Shown one piece after another: positions 7,079 through 30,180 of a stretch of DNA of 64,000 nt (its first letter is position 1; the number at the start of each line of letters is the position of its first letter). Where the stretch lies: NCBI GenBank assembly GCA_965238025.1, contig OZ250162.1, forward strand, positions 969,288-1,033,287, written 5' to 3'. The DNA is from Aggregatimonas sp. Lineage in GTDB: Bacteria; Bacteroidota; Bacteroidia; Flavobacteriales; Flavobacteriaceae. The translations under genes and the position numbers were made by a program. A model generated the notes under the pieces. It was not told where the DNA came from, did not search any database, and worked only from the letters and a program-made list of their open reading frames with translations.

Positions 7079-7687
7079 TTATTTGTTTGCCTCATATAGC
7101 TCAGAAACCCTATCCCAGTTAATTATGTTGAAAAAGGCGCTAACATAATCGGGCCGTCGGTTTTGGTAATTAAGGTAGTAGGCGTGCTCCCAAACATCCA
7201 ATCCTAAAATAGGAAATCCTCCACAACTCACTCCTGGCATTAGGGGATTATCTTGATTAGGGGAGGAACAGACCTCAACTTTTCCTCCTTTATGCACACA
7301 TAACCATGCCCAACCTGATCCAAAACGGGTACCAGCTGCAGCGCTAAATTTTTCTTTAAATGCATCAAAAGAGCCATAAGCACTTTCAATAGCATTTGCC
7401 AGTGCGCCAGAAGGCATACCACCACCATTGGGTGACATAACACTCCAGAACAAGGAATGGTTGTAAAAACCGCCACCATTATTGCGTACAGCGCCATTAT
7501 TCATATCAAGGTTGGTCAAAATATCTTCAATAGATTTTCCCTCCAAATCGGTCCCCGCAATGGCTCCATTCAATTTTGTGGTATATCCATTATGATGTTT
7601 GCCGTGATGAATTTCCATAGTACGGGCGTCAATATGTGGTTCTAACGCATCGGTTGCGTAGGGTAGATTAGGTAGTTCAAAAGCCAT
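7079..7687 (-). CDS. sod: Fe/Mn superoxide dismutase
   Basis: [10 protein letters not shown] start (ATG at 7687); HHGKHH, FNNGGG-like [13 protein letters not shown] and DVWEHAYY motifs. Confidence 0.96.
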
Positions 7688-7914
7688 AATTATTATATTT
7701 TTAGGTGAATTATTCAATGTTGCCCAAAATTACGTTTTTTAACATTCATATTCCACTAATAATATGTTAAGGCCCCTTTAACGGTTTTGACTGTAGGTCA
7801 TCCGCTTACATATATCTTCTTTTGCTTAATTTGCAGCTCAGGAAAGTTCCTGTTATCCAGTACATAAAACTGAAATTTTATTAGGTTAAAACTGCTATTT
7901 TATAGCTAAAAGAA

Positions 7915-10900
7915 GTGCAAGACAGCCCCTTTAAAATATACAATGCCTCCGCTGGATCGGGTAAAACCTACACCCTTACCAAGGAGTATCTCAAAATTAT
8001 ACTTTCCACTGGAGGGGGTTACAGGCAAATACTTGCACTTACTTTCACTAATAAGGCCGTAGATGAGATGAAACATCGAATTCTAGAGAGCCTTTTCGAT
8101 TTTGCAAATACGTTCGAACTAAATAATGCATCCCCTCTGTTTTTGGAGGTTCAAAAAGAATTAAAGTTGGAGCTTCGGTCTTTGCAGAAAAGAGCGGCGT
8201 ATACACTCAAAGATATTCTGCACAATTATGCGTTTTTCGATGTTTCAACACTTGACAAGTTTACGCATCGGCTTATTAGAACTTTCGCTAAAGATCTGAA
8301 AATCCCAAAGAATTTTGAAGTGGTCCTGGATAGGGAGCTTTTATTGAACGAAGCGGTTTCCCGCTTACTACTAAAAGCAGGTAAGAATCCCCTCCTGACT
8401 AAAATATTATTGGATTTTGCCTTTGAAAAAATCGAGGATGACAAGAGTTGGGATATTGGTATTGATCTTATCGAAATAGGTAAATTACTTTTTGAGGAAA
8501 ACCACAAAAAGCATATTGGTAAATTTGCTAACAAGTCCATCAAGGATTTTCTAGAGCTTAAAAAGCTGGTCAATAGTAAAATAAGGACGCTGGAAGAAAA
8601 TTCTGTTTCCAAAGCGCAGGCCATATTACAGTTTATTGTGGAATCTGGGCTTGAGTTTACAGATTTTCCAAGGGAAACATTACCAAACCATTTCAAGAAA
8701 ATTTTGGCCAAGGAATTTCACCCTTCAAAACTCTATGCCAATAAACTAGAAGAAAATATTCCTGCCGGGAAAATATTAAAGGCAGGCATGGCTTTTCCAT
8801 CCACGGAAATCCAAAATCGTATTATTGGCGAGTTTCAGGAGCTGAAAGAGAATGTTTATGCTATGGCTTTCCTTAAAAATGCCTATCGGAGCATTGTCCC
8901 GCTCACAGTCTTAAATTCCATTCAACAAGAATTAAAATCAATACAGGAGGAGCGCGACCAATTATCAATTTCAGAATTCAATACCATCATTTCAAAAGAG
9001 ATAAAGGACCAACCTGCTCCATTTATTTATGAGCGTTTGGGTGAAAAATACCGTCATTATTTTATTGACGAGTTTCAAGATACCTCGGTAATGCAATGGA
9101 ATAATCTACAGCCCTTGATCGACAACGCTTTGGCTGGGCAGGATGAAAATGAAAAAACCGGTTCCCTTTTTCTCGTTGGTGACACCAAGCAAGCTATTTA
9201 TCGTTGGCGCGGCGGTAGGGCAGAACAATTTCTGAAGTTGACCAACGAAAAGGAAAATCCTTTTGTGGTACGGCCAATTGTAAAAGCTTTGGAAACCAAT
9301 TATCGAAGTAGGGCCGAAATTATAAAATTCAATAATACATTTTTTCAAAGTATCAGTGAATTTCTAAATAAGCCCACTTACAAGCAATTGTTCACCGAGG
9401 GCAACAAACAATTACAAAACGCCAAGGAAGGCGGGTATGTAGAGCTGCGTTTTTTAAATGAGGACAAGGAAGATGACAAAGATGACCTGTATGGCAAAGC
9501 GGTTTTGGAAACCATTCAAAAGGTAAATCCAAAAGGAAATGCCTATAATGGTATCTGTATTTTGGTGCGTAGTAATAAGCACGGTGTAGCACTGGCAGAT
9601 TTTCTAACTAGGCATGAAATTCCGGTAATCTCTACGGAAAGCTTGTTAATCAGTAGTAGTGAAAAAGTTCGGTTTTTAATCAACCTATTACGATATTTAA
9701 ATCAGCCGGACGACCTTTCCTTTCGTTATAACATTCTCTCCTATTTATCAAAAAGAAAGGAGAAACGGCATGAATTCATTATTGAAAACCTATACCAGTT
9801 AAACTCCCTTTTGAAAAATGACTACGGTCTTAACACAGCCCTATTACCCCAAAAATCTGTTTATGATGGTCTTGAGCTTGCTATTAAGCAATTCAACCTT
9901 GCTCCTGATTCAGACGTATATTTAATCTCCTTAATGAATGTAGTATTAGATGTAGAGAATACAGATGGCGCTAGCACACCTGTGTTTTTGGATTATTGGG
10001 ATAAGAAGAAAAGTTCATTATCACTCAGCGCACCTATAGCATCAAATGCTGTGCGAATCATGACGATACACAAATCTAAGGGCCTAGAGTTTCCAATCGT
10101 CATTTTTCCTTATGCTAATGAGGATATCTATAAAAGGTATCGAAAAAGCATGTGGCTACCGGTTGATCCAGAAGCGTATAATGACTTTGATCAGCTGTTG
10201 ATTTCAGAAAAGAAAGAGGTAATCAAATACAACGAGACGGCAGCTGAGTTGTATATAGAAGAAGAACGGAAAATGGAATTGGATGCCTTCAATCTACTAT
10301 ACGTTGTCCTTACCCGCGCCGCGCAATCGCTTTTTATAATTTCCAAAAAAGAGCTGTCCGCCAAGGGCGAAAGTAACACCTCGCATTATTCGGGGCTCTT
10401 TATTCATTATTTAAAAACGCGAGGCCTTTGGAATAATGAGCAAGACATCTATAGTTTTGGAAAGCTGAACGTATCCGAAGGGCAATGGCTGACAGCCCAA
10501 GAACCTGTTCCCTATGAATACACTTATAAAAACAGACCCAGTTTTAGCATCTTGGCAAGCGGTGGAAATCTTTGGGAGACCGAAAGAGAATCGGCCATAT
10601 TACATGGAAATCTCATTCATCATATTATGAGCCATATTGAAACCAAGGACGATGTTGCTGAAACCTTGGCCCTTTTTGCCAGTAAAGGTGATATTTCACC
10701 AACGGAATTTGGTCAAGTAAAAAGCACGGTAAGCCAAATTGTAGAACATCCACAACTAGCACCTTATTATAGGACTGGTATAATGATAAAGAACGAAAAG
10801 GATATTATCACGCAAAAAGGGAAGCTTTTACGTCCCGACAGGTTGGTTTTCTATAACAGGGAGGTCGTTGTCATAGATTATAAGACCGGGAAAAAAGACC

Positions 10901-17262: not shown

Positions 17263-18282
17263 CTACTCATGCTCTAAATACAAATTCCTGGCTCTTCTCA
17301 ATTTTTGAGAAATCCGTTTCCGTAACCGTTGGGGCTGCAATACCTCCATTGCCTCCCCAAAACCTAAAATCAATCGTTCTAGCTCAAAATTGATTTTTAC
17401 TTTGATATTGATTTCAATACTACCATCTTCATTTTCTTTCTCTATGAGCTGTGAATGATGCATGGGTTTTGTAATCACATAAGGAGCATTGTATCTATCA
17501 ACCCATAACTTAATATTTGAAGCTCGCTCTCCTTGATTTACTGTTACTCCAACAACATCCTTGTAAAAAGTATCTGCATCAAATTCAAAGTCTGTGTAGG
17601 AAGTTGCAAAATCATAATCAATGGAGATAATTCGATCTAAGGCTAAATTAACAACACCTTTATTTTTATTCCCCATCCCTACTAAGAACCATCGATTATT
17701 GAACTCCTTCAATAAACAGGGATGAAAGGTAATTATATTAGCCTCTCTGGCTTTGAATGACTTGTACTCTAATTTCAAGACCACTTTTTTCTGAATGGCT
17801 TGATACAATTCATCTAACCAATGGAGTCCCTTTAGATTTTCATTTTTATCCAGATGGATAATCGAAGATTGGTGGGTTTTTTCAGTATAAACTTTATCTT
17901 CTAATCGTTGTATGATACCGCCTAACTCCGAGAACAATGAAAAGTCTTTAAACTGCTTCAACATTTCCACAGTTTCTGAAAGTACATTCATATCATTTTC
18001 CGTGATGGGAATATCAGTAATTGAATAGTCTTCCTCTTCGTACTTGTAATATTTCTTATCATAAACAGTAATCGGAGCGTTATACCCTAGTTTATCACTG
18101 CGCATTAATTGAATATCTAATTGAACCGTCCGTTTACTCACGTTCACTTCACGACCCTCGTATTCATATAAGGCATCTGAGCAGGCTTCAATTAAATCAT
18201 CTAAAGTCCATTGACGGTAGTTGTTCTGCAAACATTTGTCAATGGTTTTATAACGGATTAGGGCATTTTTGTTGAGGGCCAT
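17263..18282 (-). CDS. HTH-WYL domain transcriptional regulator
   Basis: N-terminal wHTH (VSKRTVQLDIQLMRS), WYL-like FHPCLLKEFNNRWFLVG...LALDRI, C-terminal WCX-like LILGFGEAMEVLQPQRLR. Confidence 0.9.
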   Translation of the reverse strand: MALNKNALIRYKTIDKCLQNNYRQWTLDDLIEACSDALYEYEGREVNVSKRTVQLDIQLMRSDKLGYNAPITVYDKKYYKYEEEDYSITDIPITENDMNVLSETVEMLKQFKDFSLFSELGGIIQRLEDKVYTEKTHQSSIIHLDKNENLKGLHWLDELYQAIQKKVVLKLEYKSFKAREANIITFHPCLLKEFNNRWFLVGMGNKNKGVVNLALDRIISIDYDFATSYTDFEFDADTFYKDVVGVTVNQGERASNIKLWVDRYNAPYVITKPMHHSQLIEKENEDGSIEINIKVKINFELERLILGFGEAMEVLQPQRLRKRISQKLRRARNLYLEHE

Positions 18283-19728: not shown

Positions 19729-20780
19729 AAACAATAGAAGAGGTAAAAGCTTCAGGAAATATCATATTTGAATGCATTAGCGGTAGTAGAGCATACGGAC
19801 TCGCTACCGCTTCTTCTGATACCGATATTCGTGGAGTTTTTGTACTACCAAAAGAAAAATATTATTCCTTAGAATATGTGGGTCAAATAAATAATGAGAC
19901 GAACGATATTGTGTATTATGAACTTAAAAAGTTTATAGAACTCCTTTCAAAGAACAATCCGAATATTCTTGAGCTATTAAGTGTTCCGGAAGACTGTATA
20001 CTTTCTAAACACCCTTTATTCGACAAAGTAAAATCTAAATACTTTCTTTCAAAATTGTGCAAAGACACCTTTGCGAATTATGCTTTCACCCAAATTAAAA
20101 AGGCAAGAGGATTGAAGAAAAAAATCGTAAATCCTGTTGAAAAAGAACGAAAATCTGTTACTGACTTTTGTTTTGTTCGAAAAGAAAAGCGCGCTGTGCC
20201 TTTGAATACCTTTTTAGAAAATGAAGGTTACGAAGCTGCCCATTGCGGATTGGCAAAAATAAGTCACATGAAAGATTGTTATAACCTATTCCACAATCCT
20301 TCTATGAGCTATAGTGGAGTCGCTAGGGAGAACGCGAATGAGGTTTGCCTTAGTTCTATACCAAAAACAGAAGTTCCTGTTGCTATTCTATATTTTAATC
20401 GTGACGGTTATTCATCCTATTGTAAAAAATATAAAGAGTATTGGTCTTGGGTAGAGAAGAGAAATGATGAACGTTACAAGAGCAATATCTCACATAGCAA
20501 GAACTACGATGCTAAAAACATGATGCACACTTTTCGTCTTTTACATATGGCTAAAGAAATAGGAGCGGATTATAAAATATTGGTAAAAAGACCAGATCGC
20601 GACTTTCTGCTAGCTGTAAAAAATGCTGAATTCGAATATGAAGAATTGGTTGAAAGAGCTGAAAAGCTAAGAACTGAACTAGAATTCATTTATGAAAAAT
20701 CTAGTTTGATGGAAAGGCCCAATCTGAACATAGTAAATGAATTATTAGTTAACATTAGAGAAGAATTTTATAAGCAATAG
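19725..20780 (+). CDS. Pol-beta superfamily nucleotidyltransferase (RlaP-like) 2
   Basis: ISGSRAYGLATASSDTDIRGVF, NNPNILELL, YDAKNMMHTFRLL motifs; 4-bp overlap with the upstream paralog. Confidence 0.85.
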   Translation: MKTIEEVKASGNIIFECISGSRAYGLATASSDTDIRGVFVLPKEKYYSLEYVGQINNETNDIVYYELKKFIELLSKNNPNILELLSVPEDCILSKHPLFDKVKSKYFLSKLCKDTFANYAFTQIKKARGLKKKIVNPVEKERKSVTDFCFVRKEKRAVPLNTFLENEGYEAAHCGLAKISHMKDCYNLFHNPSMSYSGVARENANEVCLSSIPKTEVPVAILYFNRDGYSSYCKKYKEYWSWVEKRNDERYKSNISHSKNYDAKNMMHTFRLLHMAKEIGADYKILVKRPDRDFLLAVKNAEFEYEELVERAEKLRTELEFIYEKSSLMERPNLNIVNELLVNIREEFYKQ

Positions 20781-20785
20781 AAATT

Positions 20786-21463
20786 ATGTCGAAAGAAATT
20801 TTCATCAAAGGATATATTGAAAAGGTAAATAAAAATTATAGCTCATTGGAATACTATTTTAATGATGACCTAGTAATACTTTCTGCTCTTAATCCAGTTA
20901 AGTATGAGGTCATTAATTGTTTAATGATTGAACAGTATCAAGCCTCAGTAACACTTACCAATCACTTGGTTGAAAGAATGTTAAAACTTGCTTTAATAGA
21001 GAAGGAAATCTATGGTTTAAAAATTAGCATAGACGACACAGAACTTGAGAAGAAACTGAAGGAGGCCACTAAAAAATATGATAAAAACGTAATGTTTGAA
21101 TCCATAAAATTAGCATTCGCAGAGAACCTAATTAGTGATAAGGAGAGAGATTATTTAGATAAAATAATTAGAGATAATATTAGAAATGGTTTTTCCCATG
21201 CCGAAATGGAGAAAGTAAACAAGGGTAAACCAGAAAATTTTGAAATGCACTCCTATAAGTTCGGAGAAGTAACAGACTTGTTTAAGAATGGGAAGAAGAT
21301 TCCGAAAAACCAAATAAATGTTTCAACCCTCGCTCCTTTCATGCAATCCGAAATCCAAAAAATGAAAGCGGAAGCAATTGCATTTCCATATTTCAAATGT
21401 ATCTATACGATTGCCAAAAACATTGACCGTAGGCTTGACACTAAGAAAGAATACTACAAATAA
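20786..21463 (+). CDS. hypothetical protein with HEPN-like RxxxxH motif
   Basis: all-helical-looking 225 aa with DNIRNGFSHAE; AT-rich. Confidence 0.55.
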   Translation: MSKEIFIKGYIEKVNKNYSSLEYYFNDDLVILSALNPVKYEVINCLMIEQYQASVTLTNHLVERMLKLALIEKEIYGLKISIDDTELEKKLKEATKKYDKNVMFESIKLAFAENLISDKERDYLDKIIRDNIRNGFSHAEMEKVNKGKPENFEMHSYKFGEVTDLFKNGKKIPKNQINVSTLAPFMQSEIQKMKAEAIAFPYFKCIYTIAKNIDRRLDTKKEYYK

Positions 21464-21469
21464 AATTTG

Positions 21470-21506
21470 CTGCGCAAAATGACTGCGCACATGGAGCTGA
21501 CATTTG
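21470..21506 (+). promoter_or_regulatory. palindromic operator plus weak -7 box (site 2)
   Basis: CTGCGCA-N7-TGCGCAC, 8 bp, GACATTTG upstream of rtcB-1. Confidence 0.72.
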
Positions 21507-21583
21507 TTTCAGAATCATAAAGGAGACCCGTTAAACAGTCTTCATGTAGCGCTCCGCCGGACGAATGGAATCGGCGGAGCTAA

Positions 21584-22995
<1,412 letters not shown>

Positions 22996-22996
<1 letters not shown>

Positions 22997-24768
22997 TGGT
23001 TAAAAAGGACACACTTGCTAAGGCTTATAGTCATTTGGAGGGGAAACCTTTTTTCGATTCTATTGAAATTATCAATATTGAAAAAAGGTTTCAAAATCTA
23101 CATAGGGAATACAAACAAAAAAAGTACAAGGATCTTGCTAGGTGGGAAATGCTTGTCTGGGATTTTAGAATATCAGATGGTAAAGTTCACCCCAGGCATA
23201 CCCATGCTTCCAAGGATGGCAAAATAATCAATGAGTACCCTTCTTTGAGGCTTATGGATGAAGGAGCATTATCATATTTTAAAGATAGAGCTAGATCAAC
23301 TAAAAGTTACTTTTTAAAATCAAGGTATAACCATATTCTATGGGAGAGCAAAAGCAAGCATAGAACCTATGCGGTTAATGCGATTGAAAGCTATACTAAA
23401 CTGATACCTGAAATATCTGTAGAGATAAAAAACAATCAGTTATTGAATTTATGTAAAAGTTTGATAAAATTATCTCACAATTCAAAGCATAAGGTTTTAG
23501 AAACCGCAAATTGCTTAAAAAACCTGATAGAAATTGATGTTCTTGAAGATTACTTTAAGCTAGAGTTGGGTTGTTTTTATCTTGAGAACTACACCATTGA
23601 ATCATTAGATATTTTGAGGTTTATCTTTAACCATTGCTCTAAAAATTTAGGCAATATGTCTATTGAACTAGTATTCTATCCTGATTTCTGTGATGACTTA
23701 ATTAAAATTGGTAGGAAACTTAAAATTGATGTTAAGTCAATTTATAATAAAAAAGCGGAATACTATTTGAACTTGGCCAAGAATGAGAATAGCTGGATAA
23801 AGCAAGATTTTTATTTCAGGGCAATAAAGGCATATTTAGAAATCGGAGAAAAAGAAAAAGCCGATGAACTATTTGTTCTTTTAGAAAATTCGAAAGAAGA
23901 AATCAGAATGGGTTCAGTCAAGAAAGAGTTTGAAGGCCAAGAAATCCAAACAATTTTTAAGCATTTTCATTTAAAGGCTGAGCAATTAACAGATTTACAG
24001 AGTGATAAAATTTACGGCTATCTAGCTAATAGTGAATCCTTTGTCCCAAAAGCAGATGTTTTCTCTAAAAAACCAAAGCAATCTTTTCTGGACTTGCTAA
24101 TGACAACAAGTTTCGATATTAACAGCAACTTTTCGAAAACTGACAGTGGGAAAACGATAAGTGAATATTGGTTACACATTTCAAATTTTACAATAAGAGA
24201 ACTAACTTGGATTTTTCAAAAAGGAATTATAAAAGGAACTCTTAACTATGAATCACTGATTAACTATTTATATCAAAAATCTTGGATTGGAAAGACTTAT
24301 AGTTTGAATGACTATGACGGAAATCCACACGAATACTGTTGGTTACATTTGATTGCCCCATCTTTATTTGATTTTTTTAATCTTTCAGATATGGCCCTGA
24401 AAAGGAAAGATTATGGGAATACTGGATATATTCTATGTATTGATTCGTTGGCTTTGAAAATTGAAGGATTGATACGACATTTTGCTAAGATTATTGGATG
24501 CCCAACAATTGCCATAAACAAAAAAAAAGATGGTACTAGGGAAAGATATATTGAAGAGATAATATCACATGAAAAATTTAAAGAATATCTTCCTAAAGAG
24601 GATATAATTCTTATCATTTTTCTAATGACAAATAAAGGGATGAATATTCGAAATAATATCGCTCATAGCTTCTTTAAGTACGAAAACTATTCTCCGTCCA
24701 TTATGATTCTGTTAATCACTGTTGTTTTAAGACTTTCAAAGTTCGAATTGAATTTTCAAAAAAAATAA
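22996..24768 (+). CDS. DUF4209-like protein with C-terminal HEPN motif
   Basis: C-terminal LALKIEGLIR...GMNIRNNIAHSF; AT-rich, 590 aa, overlaps the rtcB-1 stop codon. Confidence 0.65.
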
Positions 24769-24818
24769 TCGCATATTTGCACCTCAATACTAACAAAAAC
24801 AAGAAAAATAGTACTTCT

Positions 24819-24884
24819 ATGCTAAATCATTTTAATCACATATCGGACGCTATAAAGCTAGGATTGCATCGAATTGATGGGTAG
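24819..24884 (+). CDS. putative leader peptide A (MLNHFNHISDAIKLGLHRIDG)
   Basis: 21-aa ORF after a CATATTTG box (24772-24779) and before a terminator; His7-Ile8 shared with three other leaders. Confidence 0.5.
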   Translation: MLNHFNHISDAIKLGLHRIDG

Positions 24885-24912
24885 ATACTATTGAAAACAG
24901 ATACATAACTAG

Positions 24913-24940
24913 AGCGTCCAAGAAATTGGGCGCTTTTTTT
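24913..24940 (+). terminator. attenuator-type terminator A
   Basis: AGCGTCCAA-GAAA-TTGGGCGCT plus T run; same stem as terminator C. Confidence 0.8.
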
Positions 24941-25044
24941 ATGTAAAATTTTTGAGAATTCTTAAAATTCTAAAAGAATGCCATTTGAAAGCTAAGCATT
25001 TGAAAAACAGCAAATTGATGAATTATGCTGCCATCTGTTAACTA

Positions 25045-25150
25045 ACGGACAGGCTATCTCATGTCTAAATTTAATTGTAAATTCTTGATTGTCAGTGATT
25101 TATAATAAATTTTATTTGTGTAATTCAAATATCCGTTTTAGATTTGCACC
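25045..25150 (+). promoter_or_regulatory. conserved promoter cassette, copy 1 (drives rtcB2-prfH)
   Basis: TTTG(25115)-N20-TAGATTTG(25139); blocks ACGGACAGG, TCTAAATTTAAT, CTTGATTGTCAGT and ATCCGTTTTAG also present in copy 2. Confidence 0.75.
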
Positions 25151-25181
25151 AGAATTAAACAATAACATTTTTCACTGAAGT

Positions 25182-25286
25182 ATATATGACAATTTCAATC
25201 ACATATCAAAAAACACTACAAGCACCAGGTGCAATTGTAGTGTCGCTTCAGGACTTCATACACACATAGCGCTACTCGCAATATGA
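25182..25286 (+). CDS. putative leader peptide B (ATA-initiated IYDNFNHIS... frame; alternative ATG frame 25186-25269)
   Basis: FNHIS matches leader A at codons 5-9; followed by a terminator. Confidence 0.4.
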   Translation: MYDNFNHISKNTTSTRCNCSVASGLHTHIALLAI

Positions 25287-25289
25287 TAG

Positions 25290-25324
25290 AAAGTCCGAAG
25301 CTCTAAAGTTTCGGACTTTTTTTT
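25290..25324 (+). terminator. attenuator-type terminator B upstream of rtcB2
   Basis: AAAGTCCGAA / TTCGGACTTT hairpin plus long T run about 100 nt before the rtcB2 ATG. Confidence 0.8.
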
Positions 25325-25423
25325 ATGCCCTTATTTTTCGAGGCACAACTTTCCGAATTAACATAACAAATCTAGTATGGTTTTCATAAATGGAACGGTC
25401 ATCCTATTCCTAAAATAAAAATA

Positions 25424-26815
25424 ATGGGAAAGAAATTAAGCGGAAAAGACCTAATTAAATTGGGTTTTCCAAAGAACAATAGCATCAATATTACTTTAGG
25501 TCAAATCAATCGGTATCTCAAACGAGTAAAGAAAGAACAGATACTGAGAGAAGCCAAAAAAGTATTGTTACATCCTGAAAACTATCAAGGTGATGGGGTT
25601 TGGGGTAAGATTGCTGAAAGTTTGTTAGATCCTGTAATAGTGAAAAAGCATGCACTCAAAACGGTACGTGCACCATTTCATATTTATGGTGAAAATGAAA
25701 TTGAAGAACAAGCCAAGTATCAATTGTACGATGCTTTAAAACTTCCGATTTCTGTTGCTGGCGCATTGATGCCAGATGCACATTCTGGTTATGGTTTACC
25801 CATTGGTGGTGTTTTGGCAACGAAGAATGCGGTGATTCCTTATGGTGTGGGCGTTGATATCGGTTGTAGAATGTGTTTGACTATTTATCCGATTCCAGTC
25901 TCTTATCTGAAAGGAAAGAAACATCAATTAGCAAATATTCTTTCAGAGCACACCAAGTTCGGAATGCGGGAGACCCATAAGATAAAGCATGACCATGAAA
26001 TCTTTGAGCGAGATGAATTCAAAAACATCCCGTTGGTAAAAAGATTAAAGGATAAGGCTTACAAACAATTAGGCACCTCAGGTGGAGGAAACCATTTCGT
26101 AGAATTCGGGAAGGTCCATATCACGGATGACCAAAACGAATGGGGATTAAAATTAGGCGAATACCTAGGTGTGCTTTCACATAGCGGTTCAAGGGGCTTA
26201 GGTGCAAACATTGCAAAGCATTACACCTATCTGGCAACAAAACAATGTCCGTTACCTAAACATGTACAGCATTTGGCTTGGTTGGATTTGAATACTCACG
26301 ACGGACAAGAGTATTGGCTGGCAATGAATTTAGCTGGAGACTATGCAAAAGCATGTCACGACGATATTCATGCAAGACTGGGCAAACTTTTAGGAGCAAA
26401 GCCAGTGGTTAAAATAGAAAACCACCACAATTTTGCTTGGAAACAAAAGGTGAATGACACTGAGTGTATTGTCCATAGAAAAGGAGCGACACCTGCTGCC
26501 AATGGAGAGTTAGGAATTATTCCTGGGTCTATGACCGCGCCAGGTTATATCGTAAGAGGTTTGGGAAATAAAGAGAGTTTAAACTCTGCTTCCCATGGTG
26601 CTGGAAGGCTTTTTTCAAGAAGAAAGTGTAAAGAAACTTTTACGCGAAGTGAGATTAAAAAGCAACTAGACTCAAATGAGGTAACTCTAATTGGTGGAGG
26701 AATTGACGAAGCGCCAATGGCTTATAAAAACATTGAAAAAGTCATGGCGAATCAACAAGAGTTGGTTGAAGTACTAGGAACCTTCGCGCCTAAAATAGTA
26801 CGAATGGATAAATAG
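25424..26815 (+). CDS. rtcB: RtcB family RNA ligase 2 (PrfH-associated, RtcB2-type)
   Basis: MPDAHSGYGLPIGGV, GVDIGCRM, GTSGGGNHF, HSGSRGLG, HRKGATPA, SHGAGR and DEAPMAYK motifs; adjacent to prfH. Confidence 0.93.
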   Translation: MGKKLSGKDLIKLGFPKNNSINITLGQINRYLKRVKKEQILREAKKVLLHPENYQGDGVWGKIAESLLDPVIVKKHALKTVRAPFHIYGENEIEEQAKYQLYDALKLPISVAGALMPDAHSGYGLPIGGVLATKNAVIPYGVGVDIGCRMCLTIYPIPVSYLKGKKHQLANILSEHTKFGMRETHKIKHDHEIFERDEFKNIPLVKRLKDKAYKQLGTSGGGNHFVEFGKVHITDDQNEWGLKLGEYLGVLSHSGSRGLGANIAKHYTYLATKQCPLPKHVQHLAWLDLNTHDGQEYWLAMNLAGDYAKACHDDIHARLGKLLGAKPVVKIENHHNFAWKQKVNDTECIVHRKGATPAANGELGIIPGSMTAPGYIVRGLGNKESLNSASHGAGRLFSRRKCKETFTRSEIKKQLDSNEVTLIGGGIDEAPMAYKNIEKVMANQQELVEVLGTFAPKIVRMDK

Positions 26816-26911
26816 GGGGATGGCAGCTAGGGAGCGCATTAATAAAGCATAACAGAAAACTATAATTATTGTAATGCAATCTCCAGCTGTCATTATTTAA
26901 TAAAATTTAAA

Positions 26912-27604
26912 ATGGAAAAGGTAATTCAAATAACAGCGGGTAGAGGCCCGGCAGAATGTAGCTGGGTGGTAGCCCAAGTACTCAAGCGATTTTTGGAAGA
27001 AACTAAGACGGAAGGATTGAAATATACCATCCTACATCGTGAAAAGGGAAACCAAAATGGAACTATTCAATCAGTTACTATAAGCTTGACCGGGGAAAAC
27101 CTAAAAGCTTTTTTAACAACTTGGCTAGGTACCATTCAATGGATTGGAAACTCAACATTTAGAAAATACCATAAAAGAAAAAACTGGTTTATTGGTGCTT
27201 TTGAATTGAAGCAAATGCAAACTATGGAAGTGGATGAAAAAGACATCTCTTTTCAAACTATGCGGAGCACAGGGCCTGGTGGTCAAAATGTAAATAAGGT
27301 GAACTCAGCTGTTCGGGCAATTCATAACCCAACAGGAGTTCAAGTAGTTGCCATGGATAGTCGCTCTCAACATCAAAATAAAAAATTGGCAATAGCACGA
27401 CTAAAAGAAAAGATGAGCGAGGCCAACCTAGAGCTGTTAAAAAGCAGTATGACGGACCAATGGGAAAATCATTTAAATCTACAACGGGGAAATCCGGTTC
27501 GGGTTTTTAAGGGTACAGATTTTAAACATAAAAAAGATAACAAAAGCTCTAAACCAAAACGGCAAAAGCTAAAAAACGATTTAAAACAACAAAAATGGGA
27601 CTAA
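26912..27604 (+). CDS. prfH: peptide chain release factor homolog H
   Basis: IQITAGRGPAEC N-terminus, WIGNSTFRKYHKRKNWF, RSTGPGGQNVNK GGQ motif. Confidence 0.92.
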   Translation: MEKVIQITAGRGPAECSWVVAQVLKRFLEETKTEGLKYTILHREKGNQNGTIQSVTISLTGENLKAFLTTWLGTIQWIGNSTFRKYHKRKNWFIGAFELKQMQTMEVDEKDISFQTMRSTGPGGQNVNKVNSAVRAIHNPTGVQVVAMDSRSQHQNKKLAIARLKEKMSEANLELLKSSMTDQWENHLNLQRGNPVRVFKGTDFKHKKDNKSSKPKRQKLKNDLKQQKWD

Positions 27605-28143
27605 CTATAGCCGATACCTATTATTTAAAAGCAAAGGCAGCATCGGGTTACGATTGGGACGAAGTTTGTGAATCACTGAACTACGCCCTGTCCTACGATG
27701 AAAATCATTGTGCCTCCCTTTGTCTTTTAGGTAAAGTTTATGCGGGAAATTTGAATCAGTATACTGAAGCTTTCGATTGCTTTGACAAAGTAATTGCTAT
27801 TGACAGTCAGTATATGGATGTCTATCCTGCCTACGCAAAATATCTTATTTGGGCTGATGAAATTGAAAGGGCAACTAAACTAATTGCTTTTGCTCTCACC
27901 ATAAAAGGCATATCAAAGGGAAGTTTGTTTTGGCTTTCTGCGTATGCATCGGAAACCAAGCAAGCATATAAAGTTGCTCTGAAACATCTTAAGAAAGCTA
28001 AGAAGTATTCATATAATGACGATTACTTTTCTTTCATTGAAGACGAAGAAAATAGAATTAAAAAGAAATTGAAACTGGATAAATCTAAAGCAAAAAAGAA
28101 GAAATCTTCAACTAAAAAAAGGAAGAAAAAGAATAAAAATTAA
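27595..28143 (+). CDS. TPR-repeat protein with basic C-terminal tail
   Basis: TPR-like helices (ALSYDENHCASLCLLGKVY...AFDCFDKVIAID) and Lys-rich tail. Confidence 0.75.
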   Translation: MGLTIADTYYLKAKAASGYDWDEVCESLNYALSYDENHCASLCLLGKVYAGNLNQYTEAFDCFDKVIAIDSQYMDVYPAYAKYLIWADEIERATKLIAFALTIKGISKGSLFWLSAYASETKQAYKVALKHLKKAKKYSYNDDYFSFIEDEENRIKKKLKLDKSKAKKKKSSTKKRKKKNKN

Positions 28144-28180
28144 CATTGGAACGTTTAAAAATAACATCTTTGTAAAACAA

Positions 28181-28291
28181 ATGACACCGAGAAAGTTACA
28201 TATCATCCAACAAATAGAGCTTTGTCTCTTCGATTTTCGCTCAGAATATAGTGAGCGAAACGGACGCTATGTGACTTTATCCAACAGTTGA
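28181..28291 (+). CDS. putative leader peptide C (MTPRKLHIIQQIELCLFDFRSEYSERNGRYVTLSNS)
   Basis: 36-aa ORF after a CATCTTTG box (28165-28172) and before a terminator; His7-Ile8; similar to leader D. Confidence 0.5.
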   Translation: MTPRKLHIIQQIELCLFDFRSEYSERNGRYVTLSNS

Positions 28292-28324
28292 TTCTATGAA
28301 ATAACTTAATTAAGCGATAAAATG

Positions 28325-28356
28325 AAAGCGTCCAATTACCATTGGGCGCTTTTTTT
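28325..28356 (+). terminator. attenuator-type terminator C
   Basis: AGCGTCCAA-TTACCA-TTGGGCGCT plus T run. Confidence 0.8.
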
Positions 28357-28471
28357 ATGAAATTTTTTAAACCAATACGTGAAAAGTAGAAAACAAATAA
28401 AATAGCATAGTTGAAACAGAAAACAATTGGTAGACAGACGGTTGTGACAACTATTCAAAATCCGCAGTATG

Positions 28472-28577
28472 ACGGACAGGAATCCTATTATCTAAATTTA
28501 ATCATAACTACTTGATTGTCAGTAAATTAAATTAATTTTTTCTTGCGTAATCTAAAAATCCGTTTTAGCTTTGCACC
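28472..28577 (+). promoter_or_regulatory. conserved promoter cassette, copy 2 (drives the tRNA array)
   Basis: CTTG(28542)-N20-TAGCTTTG(28566); same four blocks as copy 1 at identical offsets. Confidence 0.75.
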
Positions 28578-28601
28578 ATCATAAATTATAAACCTATATA
28601 A

Positions 28602-28730
28602 ATGGAATTTTTAAAAAGACATATACAATTATTGGAACTACATCTCTGTTCGCCGAAAGGGTTTGAACGGTTTTATAGTGATCAACTGTCCATTTGTAAA
28701 CAAAGGAAAAATACGTGTATCATGTGTTGA
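28602..28730 (+). CDS. putative leader peptide D (MEFLKRHIQLLELHLCSPKGFERFYSDQLSICKQRKNTCIMC)
   Basis: 42-aa ORF between the promoter and a terminator upstream of the tRNA array; His7-Ile8. Confidence 0.5.
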   Translation: MEFLKRHIQLLELHLCSPKGFERFYSDQLSICKQRKNTCIMC

Positions 28731-28759
28731 CGTCATAGACAACATTCACATATGTACAG

Positions 28760-28788
28760 AGCATCTCCAATAAAGAGATGCTTTTTTT
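28760..28788 (+). terminator. attenuator-type terminator D upstream of the tRNA array
   Basis: AGCATCTC-CAATAAA-GAGATGCT plus T run, about 25 nt before the first tRNA. Confidence 0.8.
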
Positions 28789-28812
28789 ATGCGCATTAAA
28801 TTTTTGGAAAAA

Positions 28813-28900
28813 GGAAGAGCAAGCCAAATGGCGGTGGCCACACTCTTGAAAAGTGTTCGGAGTAACCAGTCTCGTGTGGGTTCGACTCCCACCTCTTCCG
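28813..28900 (+). tRNA. tRNA-Ser(UGA)
   Basis: cloverleaf, ACACT-CTTGAAA-AGTGT anticodon arm, long variable arm, GTTCGACTC T loop. Confidence 0.9.
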
Positions 28901-28905
28901 CAACT

Positions 28906-28995
28906 GGAGGGTAGGTAAATACTGGTTCGTTGCGCTCGCCTGCTAAGCGAGTCTGCCAAAAAGCAGTGAAGGTTCAATTCCTTTGCCCTCCGCCA
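28906..28995 (+). tRNA. tRNA-Ser(GCU)
   Basis: CTCGC-CTGCTAA-GCGAG anticodon arm, long variable arm, encoded CCA. Confidence 0.9.
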
Positions 28996-28999
28996 AATT

Positions 29000-29072
29000 G
29001 ACAAGGTGGCTGAATGGTTAAGGCAATGGTCTGCAAAATCATTTTTTATGAGTTCGAATCTCATCCTTGTCT
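29000..29072 (+). tRNA. tRNA-Cys(GCA)
   Basis: GACAAGG/CCTTGTC acceptor, ATGGT-CTGCAAA-ATCAT, U73. Confidence 0.9.
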
Positions 29073-29082
29073 CTAAAATCTT

Positions 29083-29165
29083 GGAAGCATTGAGCAATTG
29101 GCTGGCTCGCCTGACTGTAAATCAGGTTCAGAAATGACATGTAGGTTCAAGTCCTACTGCTTCCA
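29083..29165 (+). tRNA. tRNA-Tyr(GUA)
   Basis: GGAAGCA/TGCTTCC acceptor, CCTGA-CTGTAAA-TCAGG, long variable arm. Confidence 0.9.
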
Positions 29166-29169
29166 CAAC

Positions 29170-29240
29170 GCGTCTGTGGTGTAATGGTAGCATCTGGGTC
29201 TCCAAAACCTATGATTGAGGTTCGAATCCTTACGGACGCG
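29170..29240 (+). tRNA. tRNA-Trp(CCA)
   Basis: GCGTCTG/CGGACGC acceptor, TGGGT-CTCCAAA-ACCTA. Confidence 0.88.
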
Positions 29241-29243
29241 CAA

Positions 29244-29316
29244 AGTACCGTAGTTCAAAGGCTAGAGCGCCCGACTGTCTATCGGGAAGGTACGGGTTCG
29301 AGTCCCGTCGGTACTG
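29244..29316 (+). tRNA. tRNA-Asp(GUC)
   Basis: AGTACCG/CGGTACT acceptor, CCCGA-CTGTCTA-TCGGG, G73. Confidence 0.9.
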
Positions 29317-29320
29317 CAAA

Positions 29321-29392
29321 CTGGGAAGATAACGGTGGTTGTTTACCCGCCTTGGACGCGGGAGGTCGCAAGTTCGAATCTTGCTTCTCAGA
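29321..29392 (+). tRNA. tRNA-Pro(UGG), atypical D arm
   Basis: CTGGGAA/TTCTCAG acceptor, CCCGC-CTTGGAC-GCGGG; lacks U8 and a normal D loop. Confidence 0.7.
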
Positions 29393-29398
29393 CGAAAT

Positions 29399-29470
29399 GC
29401 TCCATTAGCATAGTGGCTAGTGCATCCGACTTTCTATCGGAAGAGAAGGGTTCGATTCCCTTATGGAGTA
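29399..29470 (+). tRNA. tRNA-Glu(UUC)
   Basis: GCTCCAT/ATGGAGT acceptor, TCCGA-CTTTCTA-TCGGA. Confidence 0.9.
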
Positions 29471-29475
29471 CATAG

Positions 29476-29548
29476 TGAGGTATAACTCAGTTGGTAGAGT
29501 ACCGTGCTTTTAACACGGGAGTCTTAGGTTCGAATCCTAATGCCTCAA
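29476..29548 (+). tRNA. tRNA-Lys(UUU)
   Basis: TGAGGTA/TGCCTCA acceptor, CCGTG-CTTTTAA-CACGG. Confidence 0.9.
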
Positions 29549-29554
29549 CAATTT

Positions 29555-29627
29555 GCAGGGATGGCGAAATGGCAAACGCAGCTGGTTTAGAACCAGTACT
29601 CTGAGAGTTCGAATCTCTCTCCCTGTA
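29555..29627 (+). tRNA. tRNA-Leu(UAG), short variable loop
   Basis: GCAGGGA/TCCCTGT acceptor, GCTGG-TTTAGAA-CCAGT, 5-nt variable region, A73. Confidence 0.82.
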
Positions 29628-29631
29628 CAAC

Positions 29632-29705
29632 GCCCCACTAGCCCAACCGGCAGAGGCAAAGGACTTAAAATCCTTCAAGTCCAAGTTCGAATCTTGGGTG
29701 GGGTA
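29632..29705 (+). tRNA. tRNA-Leu(UAA), short variable loop
   Basis: GCCCCAC/GTGGGGT acceptor, AAGGA-CTTAAAA-TCCTT, 5-nt variable region, A73. Confidence 0.82.
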
Positions 29706-29708
29706 CAC

Positions 29709-29780
29709 AAGCTTATGGTGTAATGGATAGCACGCGGGATTTCTAACCCTGAGGTATGAGTTCAAATCTTGTTAGGCTTG
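29709..29780 (+). tRNA. tRNA-Arg(UCU)
   Basis: AAGCTTA/TAGGCTT acceptor, TTTCTAA anticodon loop; anticodon and T stems contain a mismatch or several wobbles. Confidence 0.78.
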
Positions 29781-29785
29781 CAAAT

Positions 29786-29857
29786 AGACCCGTGATGTAA
29801 CGGTTAGCATACAAGATTTTGATTCTTGTTGTAAAGGTTCAAATCCTTTCGGGTTTT
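29786..29857 (+). tRNA. tRNA-Gln(UUG)
   Basis: AGACCCG/CGGGTTT acceptor, CAAGA-TTTTGAT-TCTTG. Confidence 0.87.
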
Positions 29858-29874
29858 CAAAATTGGTTTAAAAT

Positions 29875-29947
29875 GGTGTCTCTAGCTTATTTGGTAAAGC
29901 GTCCCACTGTGAATGGGAGGAATAGGGTTCGAATCCCAGAGTACACC
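29875..29947 (+). tRNA. tRNA-His(GUG), imperfect acceptor/T stem
   Basis: G-1 and C73, TCCCA-CTGTGAA-TGGGA; bulge or mismatch in the acceptor. Confidence 0.78.
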
Positions 29948-29954
29948 CAAAGAG

Positions 29955-30027
29955 GGAACAGTAGCAAAGATGGTCAATGCGGCGGATTGAAGATTCGACG
30001 ATACAGGTTCGAGTCCTGTCTGTTCCA
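29955..30027 (+). tRNA. tRNA-Phe(GAA)
   Basis: GGAACAG/CTGTTCC acceptor, TTGAAGA anticodon loop, one anticodon-stem mismatch. Confidence 0.82.
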
Positions 30028-30031
30028 CAAT

Positions 30032-30104
30032 AGGAGTATAGTTCAATTGGATAGAACGCTGGGCTACGAACTTAGAAATGCGAGTTCGAGTCTTGCTACT
30101 CCTA
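30032..30104 (+). tRNA. tRNA-Arg(ACG)
   Basis: AGGAGTA/TACTCCT acceptor, CTGGG-CTACGAA-CTTAG. Confidence 0.88.
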
Positions 30105-30123
30105 CTAAAGCAAAAGAAATTTT

Positions 30124-30162
30124 AACTACGCATAATAATTGCGTAGTTGTGTTTCAAATTTG
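30124..30162 (+). promoter_or_regulatory. palindromic operator plus weak -7 box (site 3)
   Basis: perfect AACTACGCA-N7-TGCGTAGTT; 8 bp between TGCGTAG and CAAATTTG; precedes the ncRNA block. Confidence 0.78.
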
Positions 30163-30180
30163 TCATGTAATTAAAAACAA

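Follow-up and report, generated by a model that had tools for sequence, protein, structure and literature searches.

The window analysed here, a 64,000-nucleotide (nt) stretch of the Aggregatimonas sp. genome (contig OZ250162.1, assembly GCA_965238025.1), carries an RNA-repair island that includes the region 24772-28788. The island opens with two RlaP nucleotidyltransferase genes, a divergent RtcB gene and a DUF4209 gene, and continues with a pair of leaders (A and B), the genes rtcB2, prfH and a TPR gene, a second pair of leaders (C and D), 16 tRNA genes, a GOLLD-like RNA and tRNA-like elements. Each of the four leaders is a unit of a Bacteroidetes-type -7 box, an open reading frame (ORF) starting with ATG, and a hairpin followed by a T run (Table 1); the original prediction, made from the letters of this region, had described the same units, with another start for B. 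The stem AGCGTCCAA/TTGGGCGCT is common to terminators A and C, also as predicted. The two-unit layout is found twice, before rtcB2-prfH and before the tRNA array, and its duplication is visible as a 142-nt direct repeat upstream of B and D (25045-25186 versus 28472-28613, 73% identical); no further copies of the module beyond these two were found by BLAST in the 4.04-Mb host genome. We conclude that the four units are probably transcription attenuators that depend on the position of the ribosome and switch on their targets when translation falters.

The arrangement is not peculiar to this genome but is kept across marine flavobacteria. A query with RtcB2 yielded 80 loci in Bacteroidota, and nhmmer profiles placed a B-type leader upstream of rtcB2 in 34 of them, with carriers including Flavobacterium, Myroides, Chryseobacterium, Cloacibacterium, Halpernia, Fluviicola and one metagenome-assembled genome (MAG) of Chitinophagaceae. 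The complete two-leader module can be aligned across Aquimarina, Bizionia, Polaribacter, Tenacibaculum and several MAGs. A pattern scan of metagenomes added about 36 modules, and the distinct units from genomes and metagenomes amount to 54, a recurrence that is far beyond chance. Targets are constant by leader pair: A and B precede rtcB2-prfH-TPR, C and D precede tRNA arrays, and in a third arrangement C and a B-like leader precede a TPR gene with a tRNA array. The units always lie directly upstream of their targets and in the same orientation, and the leader ORFs stay open in all lineages despite internal frame-shifting indels. Across 10 attenuator-gated arrays (including those of the window, WIN, and of L004, L005, L026, L100, L101 and L169), the most constant members are the tRNAs Asp(GUC), Glu(UUC), Tyr(GUA), Gln(UUG), Arg(ACG) and Phe(GAA), several of which are classical targets of anticodon nucleases. 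A phage origin of the module was rejected, as none of 10 pattern matches on viral contigs carries one.

Leader B, in which three helices covary, had to be corrected in its reading frame. The original prediction had read a His-Ile pair in a frame opening at an ATA at 25182. That frame was rejected: the sole ATG ORF in B, 25186-25269, is the frame conserved in 30-45 orthologous leaders, and the FNHIS likeness noted between A and B turns out to be a 15/16-nt DNA identity (24829-24844 versus 25192-25207) read in different frames. The ORF has 24-28 codons in 28 of the 30 protein-anchored orthologues and ends in L-R/Q-D/G-F. Codon 7 is Tyr in the window and Thr, Tyr or Asn in orthologues, and no B-type leader has His7 (codon counts are from 45 leaders, the 30 orthologues together with metagenome leaders). 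Region 1 (ACGAAG-like) lies 3-6 nt upstream of the ATG. The ORF that follows contains a mid-ORF hairpin (mean z-score about -2.1 against shuffles in orthologues) and, within its last codons, region 2 (GCUUCGNGRCUU); after the stop codon come region 3 (AAGYCCGAAGC), region 4 and the T run. Covariation was assessed in an alignment of 25 sequences (A2), with 500 shuffles and slid registers as controls. The terminator 3:4 helix is paired in 97.1% of cells, with four pairs changed on both sides. The antiterminator 2:3 helix is paired in 89.8%, also with four double-sided pairs, one of which is AU in 10 sequences and GC in 10 and matches a change in the terminator, a three-way covariation from U:A to C:G. 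The 1:2 helix is paired in 73% of cells, with double-sided changes in five pairs. All three helices exceed each of the 500 shuffles as well as all slid registers. In 24 of the 30 leaders, a gap of 8-10 nt separates region 2 from the start of the stop codon; since a ribosome covers about 12-15 nt on either side of its P site, one that terminates there would lie over the 3' part of region 2.

Leader C is, by its predicted pairings, an attenuator of the classical 1:2 / 2:3 / 3:4 design, with His7-Ile8 in the middle of region 1. RNAalifold recovers a helix, P0, between codons of about 4-8 (GUUACAUA) and UAUGUGAC, the segment directly following the box GGACGCU; three of its nine pairs carry compensatory changes. 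P0 duplexes computed for 23 C leaders are stronger between cognate strands (mean -7.9 kcal/mol) than between non-cognate ones (-5.6; permutation p<2e-4). In constraint folding of the window copy without a ribosome, P0 holds the box and leaves the terminator arm largely free, while a ribosome on codons 1-12 lets the box pair with the terminator arm. The ribosome masks used for C and D were offset by 1 nt, which did not affect the outcome. The distance from TTTG to ATG is 8-10 nt in nearly all C-type units, so that the C mRNA should be leaderless or nearly so, given the start site we infer.

Leaders A and D follow the same plan with their own variations. The A ORF (18-21 codons) stays open in all A-type lineages through internal frame shifts. 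Its box GGACGCU lies at codons 9-11 and is followed by a GCU-GNRA-AGC mini hairpin. The region of the start codon pairs with that of the stop codon, at -6.6 kcal/mol for cognate and -4.7 for non-cognate strands (17 leaders, permutation p<2e-4); this helix came from the duplex test, and MAFFT/alifold on the A-type leaders recovered only the mini hairpin and the terminator. The A and C boxes (X boxes, GGRCGY) vary only by wobble-compatible transitions, with one compensatory change in locus L002 (AGACGC with GCGTCT), and are read in different frames among lineages while the ORFs stay open. In D, the terminator 5' arm pairs best, across 13 leaders of this type, with a GGGAG-type box at about +103 relative to the ATG, and box and arm covary (GGAGAU/AUCUCC, GGAGGU/ACCUCC, GGAAGGU/ACCUUCC).

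The four leaders thus share a short ATG ORF in the 5' leader, an intrinsic terminator between this ORF and the target, with covarying helices, and an antiterminator exclusive with the terminator, apparent as the 2:3 helix in B, as covariation of box and arm in D, and in A and C as a match between the box and the terminator 3' arm. The ORFs overlap the switching segments: the boxes lie inside them, and region 1 of C consists of codons 4-10. These features suggest the following mechanism. Each transcript would start at its own Bacteroidetes-type promoter, encode the short ORF and end at the intrinsic terminator unless an antiterminator forms between the box within the ORF, GGACGCU in A and C, GCUUCAGGACUU in B and GGGAG-type in D, and the terminator 5' arm. 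A start-proximal segment would pair with a distal segment of the ORF at or next to the box; in A, B and D the start-proximal segment is the ribosome-binding site and AUG region, and in C it consists of codons 4-10, with His7-Ile8 among them. Which fold forms would be decided by where the first ribosome is while RNA polymerase is making the terminator. A ribosome that runs through on time would cover the box and allow the terminator to form; one that is late or stalls early in the ORF would leave the box free, and transcription would proceed through the antiterminator fold into rtcB2-prfH-TPR or the tRNA array. The most likely cue is generally slowed or damaged translation, whether from inhibitors, from damage to ribosomes or from tRNAs that are cleaved or in short supply. 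Type A may run with reversed polarity, its box being situated at codons 9-11, so that it would terminate when translated and read through when not.

Several observations weigh against this interpretation. Minimum free energy (MFE) folding gives the antiterminator in B even without a ribosome, and in C even with a ribosome at the stop codon, which implies that the off-state must depend on kinetics beyond MFE. In A, constraint folding shows that a ribosome at codons 5-14 masks the box, so that stalling at His7 would promote termination instead of relieving it. The D box of the window is degenerate (AGGAAA, against GGGAGA in the closest relative, L011), from which the attenuator of the tRNA array would be expected to respond less, or not at all, to induction in this strain. 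The metagenome sample was retrieved through the A/C terminator sequence and is therefore biased, the unit counts are not phylogenetically independent, and the invariance of region 3 in the metagenome set follows from the selection of loci through the terminator. Translation of the ORFs is predicted from their preservation, and the direction of switching and the cue are likewise conjectural. The strong promoters that B and D possess of their own leave the gain from read-through of A or C unexplained. The idea of ribosome-stalling attenuation put forward in the original prediction is thus sustained in its general form, leader-ORF/terminator attenuators gating ribosome rescue and spare tRNAs, by covarying antiterminators, constant targets and a Pseudomonas analogue, PA5471.1, while in A the expected effect of a stall at His7 would run against it.

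The conserved His-Ile pair, proposed earlier to be common to all four leaders and possibly to act as an arrest or sensor signal, invites a more specific explanation. It is present in ORFs A, C and D of the window and absent from the conserved frame of B. His7 occurs in 22 of 24 C-type leaders, always as CAT, in 13 of 17 D-type leaders and in 10 of 18 A-type leaders, with two more at codon 8 and with both CAT and CAC in use. The surrounding nucleotides are conserved as well: ACAUA is found at +18 in 21 of 24 C-type leaders and at +16 to +21, in all three frames, in 16 of 18 A-type leaders, and ACAUAU occurs out of frame in marine B leaders. The extended C/D likeness HI.Q..EL.L...YS is not retained in orthologues. 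ACAUA as a target of a single-strand-specific, MazF-like RNase was considered and is unlikely for C, in which the motif is base-paired in P0.

Codon 7 (His, occasionally Tyr) of A, C and D might be a hungry-codon probe, at which cleaved or uncharged tRNA-His or GUN-anticodon tRNAs, the targets of colicin-E5-type nucleases, would halt the ribosome and so promote the antiterminator, repair enzymes and replacement tRNAs. We regard such a specific-codon sensor as unlikely. The positions flanking His7 vary freely, some leaders have indels that move His to codon 6 or 8 but keep it in frame, and in C the codon is central in region 1, the place of control codons in classical attenuators; two specific codons of PA5471.1 also mediate the response to a tRNA-maturation defect in P. 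aeruginosa (PMC13041342). However, each leader has only one such conserved codon, whose conservation is confounded by RNA pairing and by out-of-frame nucleotide conservation, and the most widespread rtcB2 leader, type B, lacks it. In A, ACAUA persists across frames in 16 of 18 leaders, against 12 of 18 for His, and a ribosome at codon 7 masks the box. In C, the invariant CAT is paired in P0, and an RNA constraint suffices to explain it. In the arrays, the Asp and Tyr tRNAs are the most constant members, but tRNA-His is present in only 4 of 10, which rejects it as a universal member, and with one housekeeping copy in this genome, like most tRNAs, it is not unusually limiting either. The His-Ile constraint in C is demonstrably at the RNA level, to judge from the covarying helix, one strand of which these codons form and which sequesters the antiterminator; that on ACAUA in A is at least partly so. 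A codon or peptide role for His7 is possible.

An elaboration of the same idea would make codon 7 (His/Tyr, NAY, read by GUN-anticodon tRNAs) a dedicated tRNA-damage alarm encoded in cis, with the tandem leaders and the covarying inter-leader hairpin allowing read-through polymerases to ignore the next terminator. If this is true, cleavage of anticodons by a nuclease of the colicin-E5 kind would halt the pioneer ribosome exactly on region 1, and replacement tRNAs and RtcB2/PrfH would be made. We consider it doubtful. Codon 7 of the B-type leaders shows no enrichment of NAY (31%, like neighbouring positions).

Structured RNAs that choose between terminator and antiterminator by binding a protein, a tRNA or a small ligand, with the ORFs incidental or secondary, appear improbable. 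Elements conserved regardless of frame, namely the X boxes, ACAUA, the GNRA mini hairpin after the A box and the UUCGCCGA loop in D, speak for them, as does a covarying plus-strand hairpin in the inter-leader region. In every lineage, however, the ORFs keep a fixed start, a similar length and a fixed distance from stop codon to antiterminator despite frame-shifting indels, and the architecture is that of classical leader-peptide attenuators. None of the leaders was assigned to an Rfam family, the Thr, Trp, His and Leu leaders and the T-box included (cmscan, E<=1, over 20000-34000). Matches were at chance level only and fell on the B terminator; they were to Thr_leader (E 0.58; 24.5 bits, where the cutoff is 55), STnc240 and Yfr10.

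A nascent peptide M-x5-His-Ile/Lys that stalls only with a ribosome-binding antibiotic or small molecule, as in erm, cat or speFL, is quite improbable. It would account for a conserved residue at a fixed short distance from the start, and the Pseudomonas analogue is inducible by ribosome-targeting antibiotics (PMC12057347), but there is no conservation at positions 2-6, B lacks the motif, the C leader is explainable at the RNA level, and the genes downstream are RNA repair genes and tRNAs, with no resistance gene among them. Of the suggested arrest or sensor signal, what stands is the conservation of His7 in A, C and D; given the RNA helix in C and the out-of-frame nucleotides in A and B, peptide arrest is no more than a possible role. 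That the units are stand-alone genes for small RNAs or micro-proteins, insulated by their terminators and with no cis effect downstream, is very improbable: each has its own promoter and terminator, and other bacteria have examples of leader RNAs, once terminated, or leader peptides that can work in trans (S. meliloti peTrpL, PMC7298713), but the peptides are poorly conserved, the in-ORF boxes pair and covary with the terminators, and the units are always directly upstream of, and co-oriented with, the same targets.

Attenuation by ribosome position, the reading we prefer, involves a kind of switch and a regulon logic that are already known. In P. aeruginosa, full translation of PA5471.1 leads to a 3:4 terminator before armZ (PA5471, RtcB-like) and PA5470 (prfH), and stalling caused by antibiotics or by suhB or cca defects remodels the RNA and permits read-through (PMC12057347, PMC13041342). 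The leaders described here resemble PA5471.1, as far as its published description goes, in having a short leader ORF before an RtcB-like/PrfH operon, with the same target biology and logic. They differ in belonging to another phylum, in forming four leader families in tandem pairs, and in that two of the four gate tRNA arrays instead of protein genes; there is no connection to MexZ or efflux. With trpL, hisL, leuL, pheL and thrL they share the leader ORF, the alternative 1:2, 2:3 and 3:4 helices, the intrinsic terminator, a stop codon that lets the terminating ribosome cover region 2 and, in type C, a conserved codon inside region 1. Unlike those amino-acid-operon attenuators, they have no runs of regulatory codons, their targets are RNA repair, ribosome rescue and tRNA genes, and only in C is region 1 made up of ORF codons, the ribosome-binding region taking that part in the other three. 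In the erm, vmlR, bmrCD and yxjB type of control, too, ribosomes stall in a short ORF upstream, by which termination is relieved or a ribosome-binding site becomes free, but those systems involve drug-specific arrest peptides and resistance genes. In Anabaena sp. PCC 7120, a normally silent tRNA array (L-array) and rtcB are co-induced by translation inhibition (PMC8421152); unlike here, the regulation acts at the DNA level through direct repeats in promoters, and its description mentions neither a leader ORF nor a terminator. In Salmonella and E. coli, RtcR (sigma-54, CARF) switches on rtcBA upon damage to the translation apparatus (PMC7790460), likewise placing an RNA-repair ligase operon under damage control, although RtcR is a protein activator sensing tRNA fragments and not a cis attenuator. 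The PrfH/RtcB2 literature examined makes no mention of the leaders.

The novelty lies in the leader families of Bacteroidota and their pairing in tandem, in tRNA arrays being gated by such leaders, and in the His7/ACAUA element. To our knowledge, tRNA genes under leader-peptide attenuation have not been described before, and little is known of how bacteria outside the Proteobacteria come to switch on spare tRNA arrays, RNA repair and ribosome rescue. The leaders would provide a concrete cis-acting mechanism for Bacteroidota, a phylum without Shine-Dalgarno initiation, and would bring rtcB2-prfH and the tRNA arrays under a single kind of translation-sensing switch. As four natural versions of a common design, with the box at different positions in the ORF and one version nearly leaderless, they could show how ribosome position is read, and the His7/ACAUA element is a defined target for separating peptide, codon and RNA roles.

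The features of the two modules are listed in Table 1. The -7 box of leader A is taken to be a promoter from its agreement with the Bacteroidetes consensus TAnnTTTG.

Table 1. Leader, terminator and target features of the two modules, in positions of the window
Feature	Position	Strand	Basis and remarks
Leader A putative -7 promoter box cATATTTG	24772-24779	+	Sequence; CATATTTGC kept in A-type units
A start:stop helix, 5' strand	24807-24820	+	MFE fold and duplex test; 3' strand at 24880-24892
Leader ORF A, 21 codons, MLNHFNHISDAIKLGLHRIDG	24819-24884	+	His7 24837-24839, Ile8 24840-24842
A antiterminator box X, GGACGCT	24845-24851	+	Complement of terminator 5' arm AGCGTCC; followed by GCU-AUAA-AGC mini hairpin
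Terminator A, AGAGCGTCCAA-GAAA-TTGGGCGCTTT and T run	24911-24940 (hairpin 24911-24936)	+	Sequence
Inter-leader hairpin TCTGTT..AACGGA, then CAGG	25034-25049	+	Alifold, 31 sequences
Imperfect palindrome CTTGATTGTCAGT, candidate operator	25084-25096	+	About 50 nt upstream of B start site; second copy 28511-28523
Leader B promoter	25115-25146	+	-33 TTTG 25115-25118; -7 TAGATTTG 25139-25146; kept in all units
B region 1, CTGAAGT	25175-25181	+	Just 5' of start codon; partner is region 2
Leader ORF B, 27 codons, MTISITYQKTLQAPGAIVVSLQDFIHT	25186-25269	+	ATG frame, conserved (MTISITYQ...LQDFIHT)
B mid-ORF hairpin	25213-25243	+	Fold; variable sequence in orthologues
B region 2 / antiterminator strand GCTTCAGGACTT	25245-25256	+	ORF codons 20-24
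Terminator B, AAGTCCGAAGC...GTTTCGGACTT and T run	25291-25325 (hairpin 25291-25318)	+	Covarying helix
Target 1: rtcB2 (25424-26815), prfH (26912-27604), TPR protein (27595-28143)	25424-28143	+	Pfam: RtcB 2e-82, RF-1 1e-24, TPR weak
Leader C -7 box cATCTTTG	28165-28172	+	Sequence; 8 nt before ATG
Leader ORF C, 36 codons, MTPRKLHIIQQIELCLFDFRSEYSERNGRYVTLSNS	28181-28291	+	His7 28199-28201
C region 1, GAAAGTTACATATCATCC, codons 4-10, 5' strand of P0	28191-28208	+	Alifold, duplex test
C region 2: X box GGACGCT (28262-28268) and P0 3' strand TATGTGACTTT	28262-28278	+	Fold, alifold
Terminator C, AAAGCGTCCAAT...ATTGGGCGCTTT and T run	28324-28356 (hairpin 28324-28351)	+	Sequence, alifold
Inter-leader hairpin, second copy, TCCG..CGGA	28462-28477	+	Alifold
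Leader D -7 box TAGCTTTG	28566-28573	+	Sequence; conserved
Leader ORF D, 42 codons, MEFLKRHIQLLELHLCSPKGFERFYSDQLSICKQRKNTCIMC	28602-28730	+	His7 28620-28622
D antiterminator box position, AGGAAA (GGGAGA in relatives)	28705-28710	+	About +103 from ATG
Terminator D, AGAGCATCTCC...AGAGATGCTTT and T run	28758-28788 (hairpin 28758-28784)	+	Sequence
Target 2: 16-gene tRNA array	28813-30105	+	ARAGORN, Rfam

The spacers between the first terminator and the second promoter (24941-25160 and 28357-28590) are more conserved than the leader ORFs. They contain a hairpin with the loop GAGACAG, a hairpin UCCGUU..AACGGA followed by CAGG, and a palindrome about 50 nt upstream of the B/D start, which reads CTGATNATCAG in most units. 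The UCCGUU..AACGGA hairpin shows double-sided changes in five of its six pairs in the alifold alignment, and many of its G-U pairs are valid on the plus strand only. The spacer elements could be RNA acting on read-through transcripts, an operator, or both. A regulator with WYL and WCX domains (17263-18282, minus strand; Pfam WYL 6e-10, WCX 2e-15), divergent from the RlaP-RtcB1 operon, is a candidate for binding the palindromes that precede promoters B and D.

Some leaders and loci contain additional elements. A mini-ORF ATGATAGAAAGTCCGAAGCTCTAA (MIESPKL, 25282-25305) opens 9 nt upstream of the stem of terminator B and has its stop codon in the loop of that hairpin. Of the 30 B-type leaders, 14 have a counterpart. 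Translation of the mini-ORF would melt the terminator. In most D-type leaders, a short hairpin is capped by the conserved loop motif GUUCGCCGAA, which encodes S-P-K/R (28658-28667 in the window). Between the B-type leader and rtcB2, many relatives, among them the loci L001 (at 7327-8016), L002, L004, L007 and L011, have an ORF of 224-229 amino acids without a Pfam match, and the Flavobacterium loci have one of 253-257 amino acids; the window has no ORF at this place. Directly after the tRNA array of the window, 30780-31256 matches GOLLD RNA with 127.7 bits (E 5.5e-34), below the gathering score of 150, and weak YrlA-like and tRNA-like matches follow at 31501-31670.

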